Part shown: positions 3,310 to 15,269 of the stretch, one piece after another | How the letters are laid out: every line of letters begins with the position of its first letter | Position numbering within the stretch: the first letter of the stretch is position 1 | Origin: a virus | Virus record (IMG/VR): IMGVR_UViG_3300037843_000385 | Direction: 5' to 3' (one strand) | Length of the DNA: 30,659 bases | Made by a program: the position numbers and the translations under genes | Notes under the pieces: model-generated | Databases searched by the model: none | What the model was told of the DNA's origin: nothing | The model's input: the letters and a program-made list of their open reading frames with translations, nothing else

Positions 3310-4509
3310 ATGTCACATTTTGCGGTTTTGGTGGTGGGCGACGACGTCGAAGGTCAATTGCAACGTTATCACGAATTTGAATGTACTGGGCAGGACGACC
3401 AGTACGTCAAGGAGATCGACGAGACCGAGGAGGCCCGCAAAACATTCGAGAAGAACACCACCAGGCGGTACAGAGACCCCGAGGGCAACCTCCATTCGCC
3501 CTACACCCCGGAGGGCAGCCACAGCCCGCTGTTCTGGCGCGAGCTTACGCCCGAGGAAGAGACAAAATATGGCAAGCGCATCAGCAGCAGCGAGGGGGAC
3601 GATGGGCTGCGGCTGGAATCCACCGACTGGCACGACGGCAGGGGCTACCGCACGAAGGCGTTCGCCTGGCCCTCCGATGGCTGGTCTGAGGTCGAGGTTC
3701 CGACGAGTACCGTCCAGACGTTCGCCGAGTTCTGCGCGGACTACTACGGTCACGAGGCCATCCCGTTCGGGACGGAACCCGACCTCGCGGAGAAGCACAA
3801 GTACGGCTACACCATCGTTGACGAGCAAGACAACGTTATCAGGACAATCAATCGCACCAACCCGGACCGCAAGTGGGACGGGTACACCGTGGGCGGGCGC
3901 TGGAACGGCTTCTTCAAGCTGAAGCCGCTCGCCGTGGGCGTCCTCGGCGAACCCGGCCTACAGGTCATGAACAGCAACTACGAGCCGGTCGCCGAAAACC
4001 GCGCCGACGTCATCATGAAGGGCGATATCGACGTCGAGGGCATGCGCGACGAGGCCGGGGAGAAAGCTGCCGAGCGCTACGACATATTCGAGCGAGTCAC
4101 CGCTGGCCTGCCGCAGGCGCTCTCCTGGAAGCAGGTGCAGGAGAACAACCGCACGGGGAAGATGGACGAGGAGTACCCCGGCGAGCCGGAGGTGGACTGG
4201 AAGACGGCGAGGGAGGATTACAACTCCCAGCCCATGGTGAAGGCCCTCCGCGCTGACAAGGAGACGATCTGGTACGAGCTTGACGAGTTCCTCTACACCC
4301 GCGAGGAGTACATCCAGCAGCACCGCGACCGCGCCCTGGTGCTCTTCGCCGTCGTGAAGGACGGTGTGTGGTACGAGCGCGGCAGGATGGGCTGGTGGGG
4401 CATGGTCTCCGACGAGAAGGACCGCGACGAGTGGAACAGGCAATTCTCGGCGCTGATCGACGGCCTGCCGGACAACACATTGCTGAGCGTCGTGGATTGT
4501 CACATATGA
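3310..4509 (+). CDS. Large acidic hypothetical protein (399 aa)
   Basis: Shine-Dalgarno AAAGGGGA precedes the ATG. The ORF is long with consistent codon usage. I recognise no domain. Confidence 0.75.
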   Translation: MSHFAVLVVGDDVEGQLQRYHEFECTGQDDQYVKEIDETEEARKTFEKNTTRRYRDPEGNLHSPYTPEGSHSPLFWRELTPEEETKYGKRISSSEGDDGLRLESTDWHDGRGYRTKAFAWPSDGWSEVEVPTSTVQTFAEFCADYYGHEAIPFGTEPDLAEKHKYGYTIVDEQDNVIRTINRTNPDRKWDGYTVGGRWNGFFKLKPLAVGVLGEPGLQVMNSNYEPVAENRADVIMKGDIDVEGMRDEAGEKAAERYDIFERVTAGLPQALSWKQVQENNRTGKMDEEYPGEPEVDWKTAREDYNSQPMVKALRADKETIWYELDEFLYTREEYIQQHRDRALVLFAVVKDGVWYERGRMGWWGMVSDEKDRDEWNRQFSALIDGLPDNTLLSVVDCHI

Positions 4510-4877
4510 AGATTTGCCAAGAGCATTGGAACCGGCTCAGGACAGCAATCGAGGAGCGCGGCCTCTCGCACTTCGTCGCGAAGGACGGCAAAGTCGCCGC
4601 CAACAATATGGTCGCCGAACTTCAAGGCGCGAACACCAAGGAGAACTACGACCCCCTAATGGCCGCCAACTTCGCGATCTGGGGCAACGCCCTAGAGTGC
4701 TGGGGCATCGAGATGATGACGTCGGATGCGTGTCCGCTGTGCGCCCTGGACAAGCACGCGGCGGAATGCACCGAGGAAAGCTGCAACAAGCAGAGCGGGT
4801 CGGACTGGATCAGGTTCGCGGCCGACGGCCAGTTTAAGGTGGCGCAGGAGTTGGGGCTTCTGGGGGAGCCGAATTGA
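4506..4877 (+). CDS. Hypothetical Cys-containing protein (123 aa)
   Basis: ATATGA stop-start overlap with the upstream gene. Confidence 0.6.
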   Translation: MKICQEHWNRLRTAIEERGLSHFVAKDGKVAANNMVAELQGANTKENYDPLMAANFAIWGNALECWGIEMMTSDACPLCALDKHAAECTEESCNKQSGSDWIRFAADGQFKVAQELGLLGEPN

Positions 4878-4967
4878 TTCGGCTAAGAAAGATTTGGCGC
4901 TGGATTTCCCAGAAGCTTTGGGGAATAAGATGCCGCAAGCCCAGCGGAACCATCTCGATGATCCGAG

Positions 4968-5183
4968 ATGTCCACGACGGCATCCATCCGAGGTTTCGAT
5001 GAAATGGTGAAAAACGTGGATGCCACAGCGGTTTGCGGGATCGAGGGCGATAAGGTCGTCCTCCGCCTCGAATCGGAGACCCCGTCCGCCGACAACGCCC
5101 GCCTCAACTTCACGGCGGAATCGGCCGAGAGGCTGGCCGGCGACTTGCTCATGTGGGCGGACAGGCTGAGGAAAATCCGGTGA
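4968..5183 (+). CDS. Hypothetical protein (71 aa)
   Basis: Complete ORF following a 90-nt gap. Confidence 0.5.
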   Translation: MSTTASIRGFDEMVKNVDATAVCGIEGDKVVLRLESETPSADNARLNFTAESAERLAGDLLMWADRLRKIR

Positions 5184-5335
5184 CGGCTGAGGAGAGGAAG
5201 CAGGTCCGCGACGAGACCATCGACGAGCTTTGCGGCTGGCTGGCGTCCTGCATCGAGCACGTGGATCACGGCAGCGAGGTCTACAAGGCGTGCAACGCCA
5301 TGGTCGCCGCGATGAGAGGAAAAAAGACAGTATGA
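5180..5335 (+). CDS. Hypothetical protein (51 aa), GTG start
   Basis: GTGA overlap with the upstream stop. In frame with track ORF 5153..5335. Confidence 0.4.
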   Translation: MTAEERKQVRDETIDELCGWLASCIEHVDHGSEVYKACNAMVAAMRGKKTV

Positions 5336-5445
5336 CACTCCTACTGACATTGCTTTTTGGCTTGGGCTTTTACATTCTTCTTGACTGGTTTGCCGGATGC
5401 AACGCGATCCCCAATTTCCTAAAGAGACTTTGGAAAAAGTCCTAA
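5332..5445 (+). CDS. Small hydrophobic membrane peptide (37 aa)
   Basis: ATGA overlap. Begins MTLLLTLLFGLGFYILL. Confidence 0.35.
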   Translation: MTLLLTLLFGLGFYILLDWFAGCNAIPNFLKRLWKKS

Positions 5446-5454
5446 GGAGAAGGC

Positions 5455-5655
5455 ATGGCAGAAAAGGAAAAGGTGTACCGGGAGCACATAGTGTCCGACC
5501 AGGGGAACGGCGTGGCGGTCTGCTCCAAGTGCGGGGCCGATCTGTCGCCCACGGGTCCGCTCGGCCGGGGTCCCGCGCCCTACCCGTGCCCCGGCTGCGG
5601 GGCGGAGTACGAGGAGGGCGGGATGTGGGTGCAGGGCGGGGGTTCCGACTTCTAG
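5455..5655 (+). CDS. Zinc-ribbon protein (66 aa)
   Basis: Strong Shine-Dalgarno TAAGGAGAAGGC precedes the ATG. Motifs are CSKCG...CPGCG. Confidence 0.65.
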   Translation: MAEKEKVYREHIVSDQGNGVAVCSKCGADLSPTGPLGRGPAPYPCPGCGAEYEEGGMWVQGGGSDF

Positions 5656-5656
5656 C

Positions 5657-5896
5657 ATGAGAAAATTCCTGTGCGCCATCGGGTTCCACGATCCTCAGAT
5701 CGTCCGCAAGGTCTTTTGGGGAAACGTGCATCACGCCGAACTGAGATGCGCCTGTGGTAAGCGATTCGAGGGTTTCGTGGCTGGCTCCTTCGGGCGCGTG
5801 TACCCGGCAAAGACGCCGTCGGACTTCTGGGTCGCATACGACGCGGGGGCGTTGCTCGCGATCCCTCCATGCTGCGTCTCAAATTCCCAAAAATAG
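5657..5896 (+). CDS. Hypothetical Cys-containing protein (79 aa)
   Basis: Starts 2 nt after the upstream stop. Confidence 0.5.
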   Translation: MRKFLCAIGFHDPQIVRKVFWGNVHHAELRCACGKRFEGFVAGSFGRVYPAKTPSDFWVAYDAGALLAIPPCCVSNSQK

Positions 5897-6108: not shown

Positions 6109-6184
6109 AGGGGAGTAAGATAACCGGCAGTCGGTCGGTCTCCAAAACCGTACAGTGGCGGTTCAAATCCGTCCTCCCCTGCCA
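6109..6184 (+). tRNA. tRNA-Trp (anticodon CCA), CCA encoded
   Basis: Acceptor AGGGGAG/CTCCCCT, T-arm GGCGG-TTCAAAT-CCGTC, anticodon loop CTCCAAA. 76 nt. Confidence 0.6.
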
Positions 6185-6218
6185 AAGTTTTTGAAAGGAA
6201 AGTAGTTACAAGTTCTAT

Positions 6219-6295
6219 GGTGGCGGTCGTCTAGCGGCTAAGACACCTGACTGTGGATCAGGATAGCATGGGTCCGAATCCCATTCGCCACCCCA
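6219..6295 (+). tRNA. tRNA-His (GTG) with G-1, CCA encoded
   Basis: GGTGGCGG...CGCCACCCCA ends match E. coli tRNA-His. Anticodon loop is CTGTGGA. Confidence 0.75.
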
Positions 6296-6314
6296 ATTTT
6301 GAGGAGAGACGTTG

Positions 6315-6390
6315 GTCCGTGTAGCTCAGAAGGAAGAGCACCACGCTCCGAACGTGGAGGTCGCGAGTCCGAGTCTCGCCATGGACACCA
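6315..6390 (+). tRNA. tRNA-Arg (CCG), CCA encoded
   Basis: Acceptor GTCCGTG/CATGGAC, anticodon stem CCACG/CGTGG with loop CTCCGAA, T-loop TCCGAGT. Confidence 0.7.
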
Positions 6391-6394
6391 GTTT

Positions 6395-6601
6395 ATGATG
6401 ACGTTCACGATCAGCGACGAGAAGGCGGCGCAGTACAAGGCGTGGAGCGAAGAGCACCGGAAGACGTGCGGGGCGCGACCGGATATGAGCATGGCCCTGT
6501 ACAGCTTCGTGTTCACGCCGAACGGTCTTGGGGACGGCATATCGGTCAAATGCCCCTGCGGCGAGAGGGTATTCCTCGACGCCGGGGACGAGGATTTATA
6601 G
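6395..6601 (+). CDS. Small protein (68 aa) embedded between tRNAs, CPCG motif
   Basis: The track ORF 6299..6601 starts inside a tRNA. The first ATG after the tRNA, at 6395, gives MMTFTISDEKAAQYKAW... Confidence 0.5.
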   Translation: MMTFTISDEKAAQYKAWSEEHRKTCGARPDMSMALYSFVFTPNGLGDGISVKCPCGERVFLDAGDEDL

Positions 6602-6679
6602 GCGCGTGTAGCTCAGCCGGAATAGAGCGCTATTCTGCGAAGATAGAGGTCGGCGGTCCGAGTCCGCCCATGCGCACCA
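6602..6679 (+). tRNA. tRNA-Arg (GCG), CCA encoded
   Basis: Acceptor GCGCGTG/CATGCGC, anticodon stem CTATT/GATAG with loop CTGCGAA. 78 nt with a 10-nt D-loop. Confidence 0.6.
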
Positions 6680-6687
6680 AGTTTTTT

Positions 6688-6765
6688 GCCGGGCTAGCCA
6701 TTGGACATGGCGGCACGCCTTCGAAACGTGCACGTTTGCGGGTTCGAATCCCGCGCCCGGTTCCA
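6688..6765 (+). tRNA. tRNA of uncertain identity. The perfect anticodon stem GCACG/CGTGC encloses a 9-nt loop, CCTTCGAAA. An alternative 7-nt loop CTTCGAA gives Arg (TCG).
   Basis: Acceptor GCCGGGC/GCCCGGT, T-arm GCGGG-TTCGAAT-CCCGC, CCA encoded. 78 nt. Confidence 0.5.
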
Positions 6766-6775
6766 GGTTTTTTTT

Positions 6776-6853
6776 GCGCCCGTAGCTCAGCGGAATAAGA
6801 GCATTGGTCTACGAAACCAAGGGTCGCGTGTTCGAATCACGCCGGGCGCACCA
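6776..6853 (+). tRNA. tRNA-Arg (ACG), CCA encoded
   Basis: Acceptor GCGCCCG/CGGGCGC, anticodon stem TTGGT/ACCAA with loop CTACGAA. Confidence 0.75.
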
Positions 6854-6857
6854 ACAT

Positions 6858-6944
6858 TGAGGTGTAGGGGAATCGGTAGACCCACCTGGCTGTTACCCAG
6901 GAGCCGAAAGGCACTTGCAGGTTCGAAGCCTGCCGCCTCAGCCA
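6858..6944 (+). tRNA. Type-II tRNA (long variable arm, discriminator G73) with anticodon GTT (Asn codons). Atypical Ser-like/Asn chimera.
   Basis: Acceptor TGAGGTG/CGCCTCA, 3-bp D-stem, anticodon stem CCTGG/CCAGG with loop CTGTTAC, variable arm AGCCGAAAGGCACTT, T-arm GCAGG-TTCGAAG-CCTGC, then G and CCA. 87 nt. Confidence 0.55.
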
Positions 6945-6962
6945 GTTTAGAGGGAGGATTCA

Positions 6963-7294
<332 letters not shown>

Positions 7295-7299
7295 AGTTT

Positions 7300-7374
7300 G
7301 GGTCTGTAATTCAGCGGCTAGAAGCCCTCGCTCTTAACGAGGTAACGAGAGTTCGAGTCTCTCCAGACCCACCA
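7300..7374 (+). tRNA. tRNA-Lys (CTT), CCA encoded
   Basis: Acceptor GGGTCTG/CAGACCC, anticodon stem CCTCG/CGAGG with loop CTCTTAA. Confidence 0.65.
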
Positions 7375-7394
7375 GGCATCTGATAGAATAGGGC

Positions 7395-7796
7395 ATGAAC
7401 AAGAAAGCTCAAGGCACTCGGTCAGTCGGTGCGGTGATGAGCCACTTCATCAAAGCAGGCAAAATCGTCTTGATGCCGATTGGAGACAATGAGCGATACG
7501 ATTTCGTCATTGATGAGGATGGGCGGTTTCGGCGTATTCAAGTCAAAACGGGCAAGGTCAAGAACGGAGCGATAGAGTTTAGTACCGCCAGCACTAATCT
7601 TGAAAACGGTAAGTGGGTGAGACACGGTTATAGGGGACAGATTGACGATTTCGCAGTTTACTGCCCTAAACTCGACAAGGTTTACCTTGTGCCTATAGAC
7701 GAAGCAGGTGGTCAGACACACTGTTCTTTGCGGCTTGAGCCAGCGAAGAACGGTCAACAAAAGGGCATTAGGCTGGCTGAGCAGTACGAGGTTTAG
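7395..7796 (+). CDS. PD-(D/E)xK-type (Hjc-like) nuclease, candidate free-standing homing endonuclease (133 aa)
   Basis: ...ERYDFVIDEDGRFRRIQVKTGK fits a D...(D/E)xK-like core (D, ED, QVK). The gene is visibly lower in GC than its flanks. It sits between two tRNA-Lys(CTT) genes, and its stop overlaps the downstream tRNA by 1 nt. Confidence 0.6.
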   Translation: MNKKAQGTRSVGAVMSHFIKAGKIVLMPIGDNERYDFVIDEDGRFRRIQVKTGKVKNGAIEFSTASTNLENGKWVRHGYRGQIDDFAVYCPKLDKVYLVPIDEAGGQTHCSLRLEPAKNGQQKGIRLAEQYEV

Positions 7797-7871
7797 GGCT
7801 ACTAACTCAACTGGTAGAGTAGCAGACTCTTAATCTGCGAGTTCGGGGTTCGAGTCCCCGGTGGCCCACCA
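7796..7871 (+). tRNA. tRNA-Lys (CTT), CCA encoded
   Basis: Acceptor GGGCTAC/GTGGCCC, D-stem ACTC/GAGT, anticodon stem GCAGA/TCTGC with loop CTCTTAA. Confidence 0.7.
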
Positions 7872-7910
7872 AGTTTCCGGGTATTAGAACTCTTAGGATA
7901 GGAGGTCAGC

Positions 7911-8456
7911 ATGCCCGACGTACTGGTTCTCGACATGAACTACCGCCCTGTCGGCTTCAAGTCCTGGCAGGACGCGATCACGAACGTGTGGAAGGAGCGG
8001 GCCATCGTCGTCAAGGAGGACGAGTCCGGCCTGAAGCTCCACTCCCCGTCGTTCGAGGTCGGGATGCCGAGGGTGATCCGCGTGCGCAACGCCTGGGTGA
8101 AGCGGCGCAAGACATCCGTGCCGTTCTCGCGGCGCAACCTGTACGTCCGCGACGGCGGCGAGTGCCAGTACTGCGGTAGGCACCTCAAGCTGGAGGAGTA
8201 CACCCTCGATCACGTGATCCCGCGTTCGCAGGGCGGCGTGAGTTCGTGGGTCAACATGGTCCTCGCCTGCATGCGCTGCAACAAGCACAAGGCGGGCCGG
8301 ACGCCGCAGCAGGCAGGGATGCCCCTCCTGCACAAGCCCGTCGTCCCGAAGGTGGACGACCCGAAGTACAACTTCAAGCTCCACATCCGCAAGATGCGGC
8401 CCGAGTGGAAAGAATGGGAGAATTTCCTTTACTGGAATATCGAGCTTGACGAGTAG
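7911..8456 (+). CDS. HNH endonuclease (181 aa)
   Basis: Shine-Dalgarno GGATAGGAGG precedes the ATG. Motifs are CQYCG...LDHVIPRSQGG...CMRCNKHK. Confidence 0.85.
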   Translation: MPDVLVLDMNYRPVGFKSWQDAITNVWKERAIVVKEDESGLKLHSPSFEVGMPRVIRVRNAWVKRRKTSVPFSRRNLYVRDGGECQYCGRHLKLEEYTLDHVIPRSQGGVSSWVNMVLACMRCNKHKAGRTPQQAGMPLLHKPVVPKVDDPKYNFKLHIRKMRPEWKEWENFLYWNIELDE

Positions 8457-8468
8457 ATCAAGCGACAA

Positions 8469-8500
8469 GCCCCGGAGGAGCAACCCTCCTCCGGGCGAAA
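8469..8500 (+). terminator. Stem-loop, possible terminator or processing site
   Basis: CCCGGAGGAG-CAAC-CCTCCTCCGGG hairpin after the HNH gene. Only a weak T-tract follows (AAATTT). Confidence 0.35.
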
Positions 8501-8503
8501 TTT

Positions 8504-8581
8504 GGCCCCGTAGCTCAGCGGAATAAGAGCGACGCACTCCTAACGCGTAGGTCACTGGTCCGAATCCAGTCGGGGTCACCA
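8504..8581 (+). tRNA. tRNA-Arg (CCT), CCA encoded
   Basis: Acceptor GGCCCCG/CGGGGTC, anticodon loop CTCCTAA with an A-C mismatch at 31-39, T-loop TCCGAAT. Confidence 0.55.
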
Positions 8582-8594
8582 ATTTTTGAGTTGT

Positions 8595-8668
8595 TGCCTC
8601 CTCGTCCAACGGTAGGACACGGGTCTCTGGAACCCGGTATCGCGGTTCGAATCCTCGGGAGGCAGCCA
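8595..8668 (+). tRNA. tRNA-Gln (CTG), U1-A72, CCA encoded
   Basis: Acceptor TGCCTCC/GGAGGCA, D-stem GTCC/GGAC, anticodon stem CGGGT/ACCCG with loop CTCTGGA. Confidence 0.65.
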
Positions 8669-8675
8669 AATTTGC

Positions 8676-8704
8676 TGGACAATGCCGCGAAAATGCGGTA
8701 TAAT
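8676..8704 (+). promoter_or_regulatory. Promoter TGGACA-N17-TATAAT driving a leaderless transcript
   Basis: Perfect -10 hexamer with 17-nt spacing. ATG lies 7 nt downstream of the -10. Confidence 0.6.
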
Positions 8705-8711
8705 GATCAGA

Positions 8712-8891
8712 ATGAACTCGACGCTGAAGACGATCCTGAAGGCCGCGGCGATAGCGGTCGTGCCGGGGCTGGGCGCTTTCTGGCTGTTAAGCAGGCTCGC
8801 GAAAGAGCACGAGCGGCAGGAGTTCAGGGAGTACATCCGCAAGACCTACGGGAAGGGAAGCAAGTACGAGAACGAAAATGTTGAGCCTTAG
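8712..8891 (+). CDS. Small membrane protein (59 aa), probably leaderless
   Basis: Track ORF 8682..8891 starts upstream of the -10 element. The in-frame ATG at 8712 lies at the predicted transcription start. Hydrophobic segment AAAIAVVPGLGAFWLL. Confidence 0.5.
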   Translation: MNSTLKTILKAAAIAVVPGLGAFWLLSRLAKEHERQEFREYIRKTYGKGSKYENENVEP

Positions 8892-8892
8892 C

Positions 8893-9003
8893 ATGAACGC
8901 GGACACGCTCTTCAACGTCCTCAGCGGCGTTGTGATGCTTCTCTCCGTCTACGCCTTCTACCAAGCCTCCACCTACGACGCAAAGTTCAGAAGAAAACGC
9001 TGA
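8893..9003 (+). CDS. Possible 36-aa membrane peptide (MNADTLFNVLSGVVMLLSVYAFYQ...)
   Basis: ATG 1 nt after the upstream stop. Not in the ORF track (too short). Hydrophobic core and basic tail. Confidence 0.3.
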   Translation: MNADTLFNVLSGVVMLLSVYAFYQASTYDAKFRRKR

Positions 9004-9015
9004 CCCACATCCTGC

Positions 9016-9098
9016 GGGCGCGTAGTCGGGGGAAGCCTCTACCTTCTTAGCCGTAAACGGAACTGAAAATGAGAGTTCGACTCTCTCCGCGCCTACCA
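9016..9098 (+). tRNA. Aberrant tRNA-like element (83 nt): good acceptor, T-arm and ACCA end, but no canonical D-arm or anticodon-arm fold
   Basis: Acceptor GGGCGCG/CGCGCCT, T-arm GAGAG-TTCGACT-CTCTC, then A and CCA. The only 5-bp anticodon-like stem is GGAAG/CTTCT with loop CCTCTAC. There is an extra CCG-TAAA-CGG hairpin. Confidence 0.35.
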
Positions 9099-9108
9099 AC
9101 CTTTTCGG

Positions 9109-9183
9109 GGGCCGCTAATTCAATTGGCAGAAGCGCCGACTTTTAATCGGTTAATCCCGGTCCGAGTCCGGGGCGGCCTACCA
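9109..9183 (+). tRNA. tRNA-Lys (TTT), CCA encoded
   Basis: Acceptor GGGCCGC/GCGGCCT, anticodon stem GCCGA/TCGGT with loop CTTTTAA, T-arm CCCGG-TCCGAGT-CCGGG. Confidence 0.7.
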
Positions 9184-13297: not shown

Positions 13298-14541
13298 TGG
13301 ACGAACACGACGCGGAGCAATACTACAGACACATGAGAGACGACCTGAAATACCAGTACGCCAACCTCGTGAGGGGCGTGATCTTCGGACAGGCGATAGG
13401 CGACGCCCTTGGGCACCCCATCGAGTTCGAGAAGACCCACAAGGTCGCCGACCTGGCGGACGACAACACGTTCACCGACGACACACAGATGTTCTGCGCC
13501 ATCGGCGAGGCGATGCTGGACGCACCGCCGCACAGGGACACCGACCTGTTCATGGACGCGCTCACCAAGCGTTTCGTCGAGTGGAGGCAGAATCCGCTGG
13601 GCGGGACGCACCGCGCTCCCGGCGGCACGTGCATGGAAGCCGTGCGCAAGCTAGGCACGGGACGCCACTGGCGTCAGACCGGGGCGACACGGGACGGCAA
13701 GGGCAACGGCTCCGCGATGCGTGCGGGGATCGTCGGCGCTCGCTATTGGAAGGAGCCGACCATGGCCTTCAGGATCGGCTGCTTGACCAGCGTCGTCACC
13801 CACAACAACCTTGAAGCTATACTCGCGGCAGGCATGGTCGCTTTCCTTGTTTCTCGTTCGATCCAAGGGTGCGGCTTGTTCGAGGCGGTCGCCGAGGGGC
13901 TTGCCCTCTGCGCGGACTTCGAGAACCAAGTGCCCGACTACCCGACCAACAACCTCCCGTTGAACAACATGCGCGACGGCCAAAGCCCGTGGAAGGCGAT
14001 AGCGAGCTTTTCGCGGGGCTTCATCCTCGGCGAAACGGACATGGCAACGAAGGAGTTCCTCGCCGGGAACGGCGATGATTTCACCGCCGTCCCGGCCGTC
14101 TCCGAGGCGATATTCTTCAATGCCCGGCACGACAACTACGACCCCATGGTCATCGAGTGCGCCAACGCCAGCGACGACTCCGACACCATCACCGCGATCA
14201 CCGGGACGATAGCAGGGGCGCGGTTCGGCTTCGACATGATTAACGCGAACGTCCAAATAGACCGGAGGGACGGGTGGACGGACAGGATCGAGATGCGCGA
14301 TTATCTCGAAGACCTTTCCAAGCGCATCTTCGAGACGAGCCTCGGTGAGGGGGAGATCGAGGAGGCCCGCGCCGCGCATGACATCGACGCCGCCCTCGGC
14401 GAGGAGTACGCGGAGGACGAGGTGACGTTCGAGGACGTGATCGCGGGCAAAATAGCCGACGACGGCGAAGTGCCGGAGGACGAGGTGACGTTCGGGGACC
14501 TTTCCGGCGGCGAGGACCCGGACTGGGAGGTGGAATTCTGA
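13297..14541 (+). CDS. ADP-ribosylglycohydrolase family protein (ARH/DraG-like) with an acidic repeat tail (414 aa)
   Basis: GQAIGDALGHPIEF, TDDTQM, GNGSAMR and DSDTITAITGTIAGARFG signatures. C-terminal direct repeat EDEVTF(E/G)D. Confidence 0.85.
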   Translation: MDEHDAEQYYRHMRDDLKYQYANLVRGVIFGQAIGDALGHPIEFEKTHKVADLADDNTFTDDTQMFCAIGEAMLDAPPHRDTDLFMDALTKRFVEWRQNPLGGTHRAPGGTCMEAVRKLGTGRHWRQTGATRDGKGNGSAMRAGIVGARYWKEPTMAFRIGCLTSVVTHNNLEAILAAGMVAFLVSRSIQGCGLFEAVAEGLALCADFENQVPDYPTNNLPLNNMRDGQSPWKAIASFSRGFILGETDMATKEFLAGNGDDFTAVPAVSEAIFFNARHDNYDPMVIECANASDDSDTITAITGTIAGARFGFDMINANVQIDRRDGWTDRIEMRDYLEDLSKRIFETSLGEGEIEEARAAHDIDAALGEEYAEDEVTFEDVIAGKIADDGEVPEDEVTFGDLSGGEDPDWEVEF

Positions 14542-15269
14542 TGGAAACGCTCTTGAACGGCATCATAAGCGCTCTGGCAGCTATGGTCGCACCCGGCGTG
14601 ACAACCAAGCAACTCGACGAGCAGGCGGAGCGCCTGTGCGCCGTCCACGGTGTCAAGCCCGCGTTCAAGGGCTACAAGCCGCCCAACTTCGGCAAGGAGG
14701 AGGGCTTCCCGAACGCGCTCTGCGTCTCGATTAACGAGGAGGTCATCCACGGCATTCCGTCCGACAGGCAAATAGTCGAGGGGGACGTTGTAAAATTGGA
14801 CATGGGGATCGAGCAGGACGGGCAGTTTGACGATGGTGCGACAACCGTGCTCGTCGGTGATATAGACCCGAAGACTGGGCATATCCTCGGCACGTCCGCG
14901 ACAGCGCGAAAGCTCGTGAAGGCGACAAAGGAAGCATTGGACGCCGGAATCGCGCAAGCGAAAGCCGGGAAGACCACGCACGACATCGCAGCCGTCGTCG
15001 AGGCGGTTGCGAAAAAATACGATGTGCATGTTATCCACGGCTACGGCGGGCACGGCATTGGGGAACAGCTTCACATGGAGCCGCATATCCCGAACGAGGT
15101 CGCTGGCGAGGCGGCCCCAGTAAAGCTTGAGAAGGGCATGCGTATCGCCATCGAGCCGATGTTCGGCTCGAATCACGGATTCACGCAAGTAGCGAAGGAT
15201 GGATGGACGGTGAAGCTCCGCAATGGGGGCCTCGCCGCGCACTTCGAACAGACAGTCACCATTGAGTGA
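14541..15269 (+). CDS. map: Methionine aminopeptidase, type I
   Basis: FPNALCVSINEEVIHGIP, GDVVKLDMG, HGYGGHGIG, IAIEPM and HFEQTVTI match the MetAP-I metal-binding signatures. Confidence 0.9.
   Translation: METLLNGIISALAAMVAPGVTTKQLDEQAERLCAVHGVKPAFKGYKPPNFGKEEGFPNALCVSINEEVIHGIPSDRQIVEGDVVKLDMGIEQDGQFDDGATTVLVGDIDPKTGHILGTSATARKLVKATKEALDAGIAQAKAGKTTHDIAAVVEAVAKKYDVHVIHGYGGHGIGEQLHMEPHIPNEVAGEAAPVKLEKGMRIAIEPMFGSNHGFTQVAKDGWTVKLRNGGLAAHFEQTVTIE

Follow-up and report, generated by a model that had tools for sequence, protein, structure and literature searches.

The window analysed here, a 30,659-nt stretch of the IMG/VR virus record IMGVR_UViG_3300037843_000385, encodes rIIA/rIIB, a Ku-like protein, an HNH endonuclease and an ADP-ribosylglycohydrolase and is part of a very large phage; homologues of a 245-aa protein encoded just downstream of its tRNA island are found on contigs of 447, 458 and 463 kb. 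Among the genes of the island is one of 78 nt at 6688-6765, which by direct reading has the sequence GCCGGGCUAGCCAUUGGACAUGGCGGCACGCCUUCGAAACGUGCACGUUUGCGGGUUCGAAUCCCGCGCCCGGUUCCA and divides into the segments GCCGGGC-UA-GCCA-UUGGACA-UGGC-G-GCACG-CCUUCGAAA-CGUGC-ACGUUU-GCGGG-UUCGAAU-CCCGC-GCCCGGU-U-CCA. The features of the island and of this gene are as follows.

6109-9183, + strand: phage tRNA island with 13 tRNAs (Trp, His, five Arg, two Asn, three Lys and Gln) and homing-endonuclease-like genes between them (ARAGORN, Rfam, protein annotation)
6688-6765, + strand: gene assigned to tRNA-Arg(UCG), with encoded CCA (ARAGORN, Rfam RF00005, minimum free energy (MFE) fold, family covariation)
6688-6694, + strand: acceptor 5' strand GCCGGGC, partner GCCCGGU at 6755-6761, with a G1·U72 wobble (MFE; this helix, helix 1, is 100% paired in the family, with three pairs changed on both sides)
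6697-6711, + strand: atypical D-arm GCCA-UUGGACA-UGGC (direct reading; two of the four stem pairs covary)
6712, + strand: unpaired purine between D stem and anticodon stem, position 26 by homology (G or A in all seven family members)
6713-6717, + strand: anticodon stem 5' strand GCACG, five Watson-Crick layers, partner CGUGC at 6727-6731 (MFE, family covariation)
6718, + strand: C at the loop-closing position 31, opposite A 6726 (position 39), a C·A mismatch (family alignment)
6719-6725, + strand: 7-nt anticodon loop CUUCGAA, anticodon UCG at 6721-6723 (orthologues, other Arg tRNAs of the window)
6732-6737, + strand: variable loop ACGUUU, 6 nt, against 5 nt in canonical orthologues (MFE, orthologues)
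6738-6754, + strand: T-arm GCGGG-UUCGAAU-CCCGC (Rfam, MFE; helix 4 is 100% paired in the family, with three covarying pairs)
6762-6765, + strand: discriminator U73 and encoded CCA (direct reading)

ARAGORN calls a tRNA-Arg(tcg) at exactly 6688-6765, the cloverleaf is the MFE fold of the segment, and a targeted search with Rfam RF00005 returns 36.9 bits (E = 7e-7), above the gathering score of 29. The features of RF00005 present include the 7-bp acceptor, the 5-bp T stem with its 7-nt T-loop, and G18G19 in the D-loop. The score is nevertheless the lowest in the island, whose other members reach 49-68 bits, and a whole-window run at the gathering threshold found 12 of the 13 island tRNAs, the one at 6688-6765 being dropped by the speed filters. 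The connector between acceptor and D stem has two nucleotides (U8 A9), and the acceptor and T stems measure 7 and 5 bp. The D-arm, with its G18G19 and A20, has a U in the expected place of A14 if the 4-bp stem forms, and its loop region fits the Rfam D-loop poorly. A first-pass annotation made from the letters of the window had described acceptor, T-arm and CCA as canonical, which holds for the T-arm and the CCA; the acceptor does have its 7 bp but starts with G1·U72 and is followed by a U discriminator. The same annotation passed over the atypical D-arm and the six layers that appear when the anticodon helix is counted from the loop.

An assembly error is ruled out, as the identical tRNA occurs in three further contigs from other metagenome samples. 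These contigs represent the same phage (99.96-99.99% identity), so they exclude error and carry no evolutionary information; the contigs recovered by exact-protein look-up (L015-L018) are likewise the same phage (99.96-100% identity).

The only perfect 5-bp anticodon stem in the gene, GCACG (6713-6717) with CGUGC (6727-6731), closes around the nine nucleotides CCUUCGAAA (6718-6726). Both the MFE and the centroid fold have this 9-nt loop, and the Infernal alignment to the Rfam model reaches it by a 2-nt insertion at which the posterior is only 5-6. Direct reading, folding and Infernal therefore bear out the first-pass annotation in what it saw, a perfect stem around nine nucleotides in a 78-nt gene, and in its remark that a 7-nt alternative, CUUCGAA with the anticodon UCG at 6721-6723, requires a C·A mismatch, here 6718·6726. 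Taken alone, the window sequence can be drawn as 5 bp and 9 nt or as six layers, one of them C·A, around 7 nt; the nearest-neighbour energy model gives no credit for a C·A pair, and changing C31 to U in silico makes the anticodon arm 1.7 kcal/mol more stable. A tRNA intron was considered and rejected, since there are merely two extra nucleotides.

To place the gene among its relatives, we used synteny, taking contigs that encode relatives (86-64% identity) of the downstream 245-aa protein. The islands so recovered share their gene order (Trp, His, Arg-CCG/GCG, Arg-UCG, Arg-ACG, Asn and so on), with the island syntenic in contigs L019, L021, L022, L041 and L028/L039. In the syntenic orthologues L019:5117-5194 and L021:6497-6575, a U stands at the equivalent of C6718, and their six-pair stems (ACACGU/ACGUGU and GCACGU/ACGUGC, respectively) close the 7-nt loop CUUCGAA. 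The syntenic orthologues of L022, L041 and L045, which are more distant, are of the ordinary tRNA-Arg(UCG) type, with a 5-bp stem, a 7-nt loop (CUUCGAA or UUUCGAA) and a 5-nt variable loop. Three features, namely the six-layer arm, the 6-nt variable loop and the D-arm GCCA-UUGGACA-UGGC, are thus derived in a single subclade; among its members, the window tRNA differs at the closing position by one U-to-C substitution (U-A to C·A). All six orthologues obtained by synteny only share the UCG anticodon and the U33/A37/A38 frame; position 32 is C in five of them and U in L045.

A pattern scan of metagenome contigs returned 14 loci, eight by chance and six real, which added four further distinct family sequences and brought the total to seven. 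Since the pattern fixed the loop sequence and its spacing, loop invariance is circular in these four of the seven members, and only the synteny-derived orthologues are unbiased on this point. Across the seven sequences the closing pair 31/39 is U-A in five and C·A in two (the window tRNA and L029), and the six pairs of L019, L021, L025, L031 and L037 are accompanied by covariation. When the seven are threaded onto an explicit six-layer cloverleaf, 98.7% of pair cells are standard and 10 of the 22 pairs show compensatory change; none of 500 shuffles reaches the observed pairing values, slid registers all fall to 32-49% pairing, and the sole unpaired cells are the two C·A cases. The outermost, extra pair (6713·6731 in the window) occurs as all four Watson-Crick types (A-U in two sequences, G-C in two, U-A in two and C-G in one). 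The MAFFT alignment misplaces the extra variable-loop base of L021, which leaves the pair counts unaffected, as C stands in both candidate columns.

The two C·A sequences are the most distant pair in the family, with 17 differences, and the nearest relative of each is a U-A member (L031, at six differences from the window tRNA, and L025, at 11 from L029). Two independent U-to-C transitions, one in the window lineage and one in that of L029, are the simplest history and the probable one. Four of the six differences between the window tRNA and L031 make up two compensatory double changes by which the pairs are kept, which indicates that the gene has been kept under structural selection.

The covariance model is ambiguous on the C·A sequences and unambiguous on the U-A orthologues. 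With L019, Infernal gives a standard 7-nt loop at a posterior of 8-9 (41.6 bits) and accommodates the additional stem base by an insertion following position 26; with L029 it also gives a 7-nt loop, flags the C·A and scores 33.4 bits at low posterior. A confident alignment with a 7-nt loop, named by the first-pass annotation as the outcome at odds with an expanded loop, is thus absent for the window sequence taken alone and present for its U-A orthologue. The purine at 6712 faces an invariant A that starts the variable loop, and L022 has G26 and A44 in the equivalent places; by homology with L022, the purine and the invariant A look like the usual 26·44 pair. If they are so assigned, the sixth pair would be a true insertion and the arm may be one layer longer.

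The reading we favour, with a probability of about 0.8, is that the gene specifies a functional tRNA-Arg(UCG) that reads triplets, its apparent 9-nt loop being a 7-nt loop closed by C31·A39 on a lineage-specific six-layer stem. The design of the lineage would be six stacked layers rather than five, closing C32-U33-U34-C35-G36-A37-A38, and one U-to-C transition at the loop-closing position would have converted U31-A39 to C31·A39. The loop looks 9 nt long because C31·A39 is left undrawn when only Watson-Crick pairs are shown; C31·A39 may form a protonated A+·C wobble, or may simply stack. Five Watson-Crick pairs remain in the stem despite the mismatch, so that the stem is not reduced to four. 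The gene would presumably be transcribed with its neighbours, processed by host enzymes (the CCA being encoded) and charged by the host ArgRS through A20, C35 and G36, and the tRNA would read the rare codon CGA and possibly CGG.

Arginine identity is likely, as judged from the bases that the gene carries. The set A20, C35 and G36 constitutes the identity elements of E. coli ArgRS, with A20 a major element. Both C35 and G36 are present in the anticodon UCG (6721-6723), and the A directly after G18G19 in the D-loop UUGGACA would be A20 by our numbering. Where tRNA-Arg is expected to carry A73 or G73, the window tRNA has U73, with U in six of the seven family members and C in L021. The four remaining Arg tRNAs of the island carry A73 and differ from it in their first pair too; it is this discriminator, together with G1·U72 and the atypical D-arm, that leaves the arginine identity unproven. 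The anticodon loops of the other Arg tRNAs in the window (CUCCGAA, CUGCGAA, CUACGAA and CUCCUAA) have the same C32-U33-NNN-A37-A38 frame. Together with the ARAGORN call and the 6-bp/7-nt U-A orthologues, this shared frame supports an unusual tRNA-Arg(UCG), which was one of the two readings put forward in the first-pass annotation.

Its other reading, a frameshift suppressor or quadruplet decoder, would have C31 and A39 stay open and the 9-nt loop read four or five bases (e.g. CGAA) or promote +1 frameshifting. The perfect 5-bp stem around nine nucleotides in both the MFE fold and the Infernal alignment is what such a tRNA would present, and the same open state in the second lineage (L029) is evidently tolerated, but the inner seven bases are unchanged relative to the orthologues and the bases flanking them pair in five of the seven family members. 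As the U-A orthologues fold as 6 bp and 7 nt, the two extra unpaired bases come from the opening of the closing pair by substitution and not from an insertion into the loop. SufB2, SufJ and related suppressors resemble the window tRNA in having more than 7 nt between the last Watson-Crick pairs of the anticodon stem; classical suppressors, however, have an inserted loop base and an 8-nt loop (PMC4238358; 10.1101/2020.12.31.424971), whereas the closing pair of the window tRNA is opened by a base change. Among the tRNAs of these islands, a tRNA-Arg(CCU), a tRNA-Ser(GCU) and a tRNA-Ile(UAU) likewise have C·A or A·C at 31·39, a sign that such a mismatch is neutral or tolerated. The 24 window genes analysed, from part of one genome, are all open in frame 0 under the standard code, five CGA-A contexts included, and none of them requires a frameshift at CGA; this is weak evidence, but the codon data give no hint that four-base reading is needed or would be costly. 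We regard a genuine expanded loop as extremely improbable.

Decay offers another account of the mismatch, in which a U-to-C change weakens the arm of a redundant tRNA that then drifts towards a pseudogene or remains as a poorly functional copy. The low Rfam score and the loss to Infernal filters fit such a course, as do the gain in stability on restoring U31 and a limited demand for the tRNA: CGA is the rarest Arg codon of the 24 window genes (17 occurrences in 6,426 codons, 4.3% of Arg codons), and the phage also carries Arg tRNAs with the anticodons ACG, GCG, CCG and CCU. The low score is shared family-wide, though, the U-A members reaching only 41.6-45.2 bits, and the window arm, with its G-C outer pair, is no weaker (-6.2 kcal/mol) than the U-A arm of L019 (-5.9 kcal/mol). 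The other 21 pairs are all intact, the changes relative to the nearest relative are compensatory, and the C·A state arose in a second lineage too, all of which makes decay unlikely. The recurrence of C·A could also be taken as a sign of adaptation, the six layers and the mismatch serving to alter recognition by host Arg anticodon nucleases or to tune the decoding range. For phage tRNAs, changes in the anticodon loop have been put forward as a means of escaping anticodon nucleases, colicin D, PrrC and VapC among them (PMC10264068), unpinning of a terminal pair alters decoding in tRNA-Trp(CCA) (PMC13092985), and Arg, Lys, Asn, His and Gln tRNAs abound in the island, many with unpaired terminal stem positions. 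U-A is nevertheless retained in most family members, and the case established by experiment involves the top pair in a C34 tRNA rather than the bottom pair in a U34 tRNA; we consider an adaptive arm of this kind speculative and very unlikely as the explanation of the locus. That the six-layer stem and its occasional C·A form represent a functional adaptation of the megaphage tRNA-Arg(UCG) and not neutral drift, whether by nuclease escape or by wider or shifted CGN decoding, is by analogy conceivable, though we would not expect it to hold.

The window tRNA resembles canonical bacterial and phage tRNA-Arg(UCG) (RF00005) in its 7-bp acceptor, G18G19 and A20, loop C32-U33-UCG-A37-A38, UUCGAAU T-loop and encoded CCA, and its syntenic position is that of the canonical genes in L022, L041 and L045. 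It differs from the canonical type in the extra anticodon-stem pair, the 6-nt variable loop, the atypical D-arm, the G1·U72/U73 end and C31·A39. A survey of ~1.7 million bacterial tRNAs (Fakih et al. 2026, PMC13092985) found that 94.2% have a 5-bp anticodon stem and 5.6% a single unpinned terminal pair, with other stem lengths, 6 bp included, accounting for 0.2% together, so that 6-bp stems in bacteria are not unheard of. The window tRNA is like the unpinned class in having lost a terminal Watson-Crick pair, here the bottom one, but unlike that 4-bp class it keeps five Watson-Crick pairs, and the cases tested there concern the top pair of tRNA-Trp(CCA).

A six-layer stem with a 7-nt loop and a small D-loop is also found in tRNAPyl, mammalian mt-tRNASer(UCN), the tRNASec-like selC* tRNACys and allo-tRNAs (Krahn et al. 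2020, PMC7609411). Of these, tRNAPyl and mt-tRNASer(UCN) compensate by a single connector nucleotide between acceptor and D-arm and a 3-nt variable loop; in the Sec-like tRNAs the acceptor/T arms are 8/4 or 9/3 and the variable arms long (PMC7609411). The window tRNA, in contrast to these 6-bp-stem classes, has the normal two connector nucleotides (U8 A9), 7/5 acceptor and T stems, a sense anticodon and a variable loop that is longer, at 6 nt, and a tRNAPyl-like or tRNASec-like identity was rejected because connector, variable loop and acceptor/T lengths do not fit. An 8-nt anticodon loop is known in yeast mt-tRNAThr(UAG) (PMC7609411).

A natural quadruplet decoder would have mattered greatly, and it is the comparative evidence that removes that reading. 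What the locus does illustrate is how folding programs, and even Infernal, can mistake a normal tRNA for one with an expanded loop after a single transition at the closing pair, which calls for caution in screens for frameshift suppressors. The covariation-backed six-layer stem and the atypical D-arm belong to what is otherwise an ordinary elongator tRNA of ~450-kb phages; they match no described 6-bp class, and we regard this conserved combination in a phage tRNA lineage as a mildly new element. Such genes are easily missed, given their poor scores with standard tRNA models: two family members were missed altogether in a 17.6-kb Infernal search. Members of the family (window 6688-6765, L025:1412-1489 and L029:592-669) were also lost to Infernal default filters or E-value cutoffs in larger searches, though they passed the gathering score in targeted ones, and phage tRNAs of this kind may be undercounted by Infernal-based annotation pipelines.

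The family was sought more widely. Near and distant DNA searches of isolate phages returned no relatives, only generic matches to the neighbouring tRNA-Arg(ACG) and tRNA-Asn, and tblastn of rIIA against isolate phages gave at most 37.5% identity and no close isolate. The exact 20-mer of the anticodon arm had no match in viral contigs, the D-arm 17-mer had one chance match there, in AT-rich non-tRNA DNA (L014), and loci related by two flanking proteins showed 30-43% identity only and no comparable Arg cluster. With a looser pattern (D-arm and T-loop, anticodon arm left free) the viral contigs yielded only L025, and the cellular genomes of the collection were without this tRNA type; a match in the bacterial MAG L046 lies within coding sequence and was set aside as chance. 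Contigs for P0030, P0042, P0055 and P0008 had no tRNA island beside the marker gene, and no description of such a phage tRNA was found in the searchable literature.

Non-standard pairs at the ends of the anticodon stem are a recurrent trait of these islands. Seven of 161 ARAGORN island tRNAs have a non-standard 31·39, and in all seven it is A·C or C·A; carriers include the tRNA-Arg(CCU) of the window (8504-8581) and its L019 orthologue (7635-7711), as well as a tRNA-Ser(GCU) and a tRNA-Ile(UAU). A·C lies a single transition from Watson-Crick pairing and, once protonated, can pair in a wobble-like manner. The closing mismatch of the tRNA-Arg(CCU) at 8504-8581, A31·C39, is flagged by Infernal. 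With the register taken as ARAGORN assigns it, about a quarter of the 161 tRNAs are without a standard top pair, a share far above the 5.6% for bacteria. Many tRNA-Lys (CUU, UUU) in the islands of the window, L019, L021, L022, L023, L032 and L041 have 27·43 unpaired (G·A, A·A, C·A, U·C or C·U). With so many unpaired terminal stem positions in the same islands, these tRNAs provide phage cases for the recent debate on whether anticodon-stem 'unpinning' matters functionally.

The tRNA-Trp(CCA) of the island (6109-6184) has U27·U43 at the top of its anticodon stem, which leaves four paired layers; U27·U43 is kept in L019:3857-3932, L021:5287-5361 and L022:2634-2709, and the top is paired in L028, L029, L039 and L041. 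Unpinning of the top pair has been reported to let tRNA-Trp(CCA) read UGA (PMC13092985); TGA is still the stop codon of 12 of the 24 window genes. One of the two tRNA-Asn(GUU) genes of the window (6858-6944) is 87 nt long, with a stem-loop variable arm, GCC-GAAA-GGC, of a class-II-like kind unusual for Asn, while a normal 75-nt tRNA-Asn(GUU) lies nearby at 7220-7294. Relatives also have long (86-91 nt) Asn, Gln, Trp, Arg(CCU), Arg(ACG) and Lys tRNAs.

Protein-coding genes are interspersed in these islands. Between tRNA genes of the window island lie a PD-(D/E)XK-family gene (7395-7796) and an HNH endonuclease gene (7911-8456), both of them likely homing-endonuclease-type insertions. Related islands contain short aminoacyl-tRNA-synthetase-like genes (HisRS-like, ArgRS DALR, class Ib TrpRS/TyrRS-like and SerRS N-terminal) and an IF3 C-terminal domain, at L019:4151-4612 and 14349-15110, L021:5400-6017, L022:3015-3371, 4351-4599, 4767-5756 and 14311-15066, and L023:3649-4179. 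The ArgRS-like fragment of L022 lies ~0.8 kb downstream of its Arg tRNA cluster, and the window has no equivalent between its tRNAs. Finally, tRNA-like genes with a two-base 'anticodon' and odd loops (tRNA-??? in ARAGORN) occur at L004:7822-7896, L023:81-152, L028:5905-5972, and L029:473-558 and 754-822; L025:2537-2604, which is the L028:5905-5972 gene again, has an Rfam score of 57 bits.
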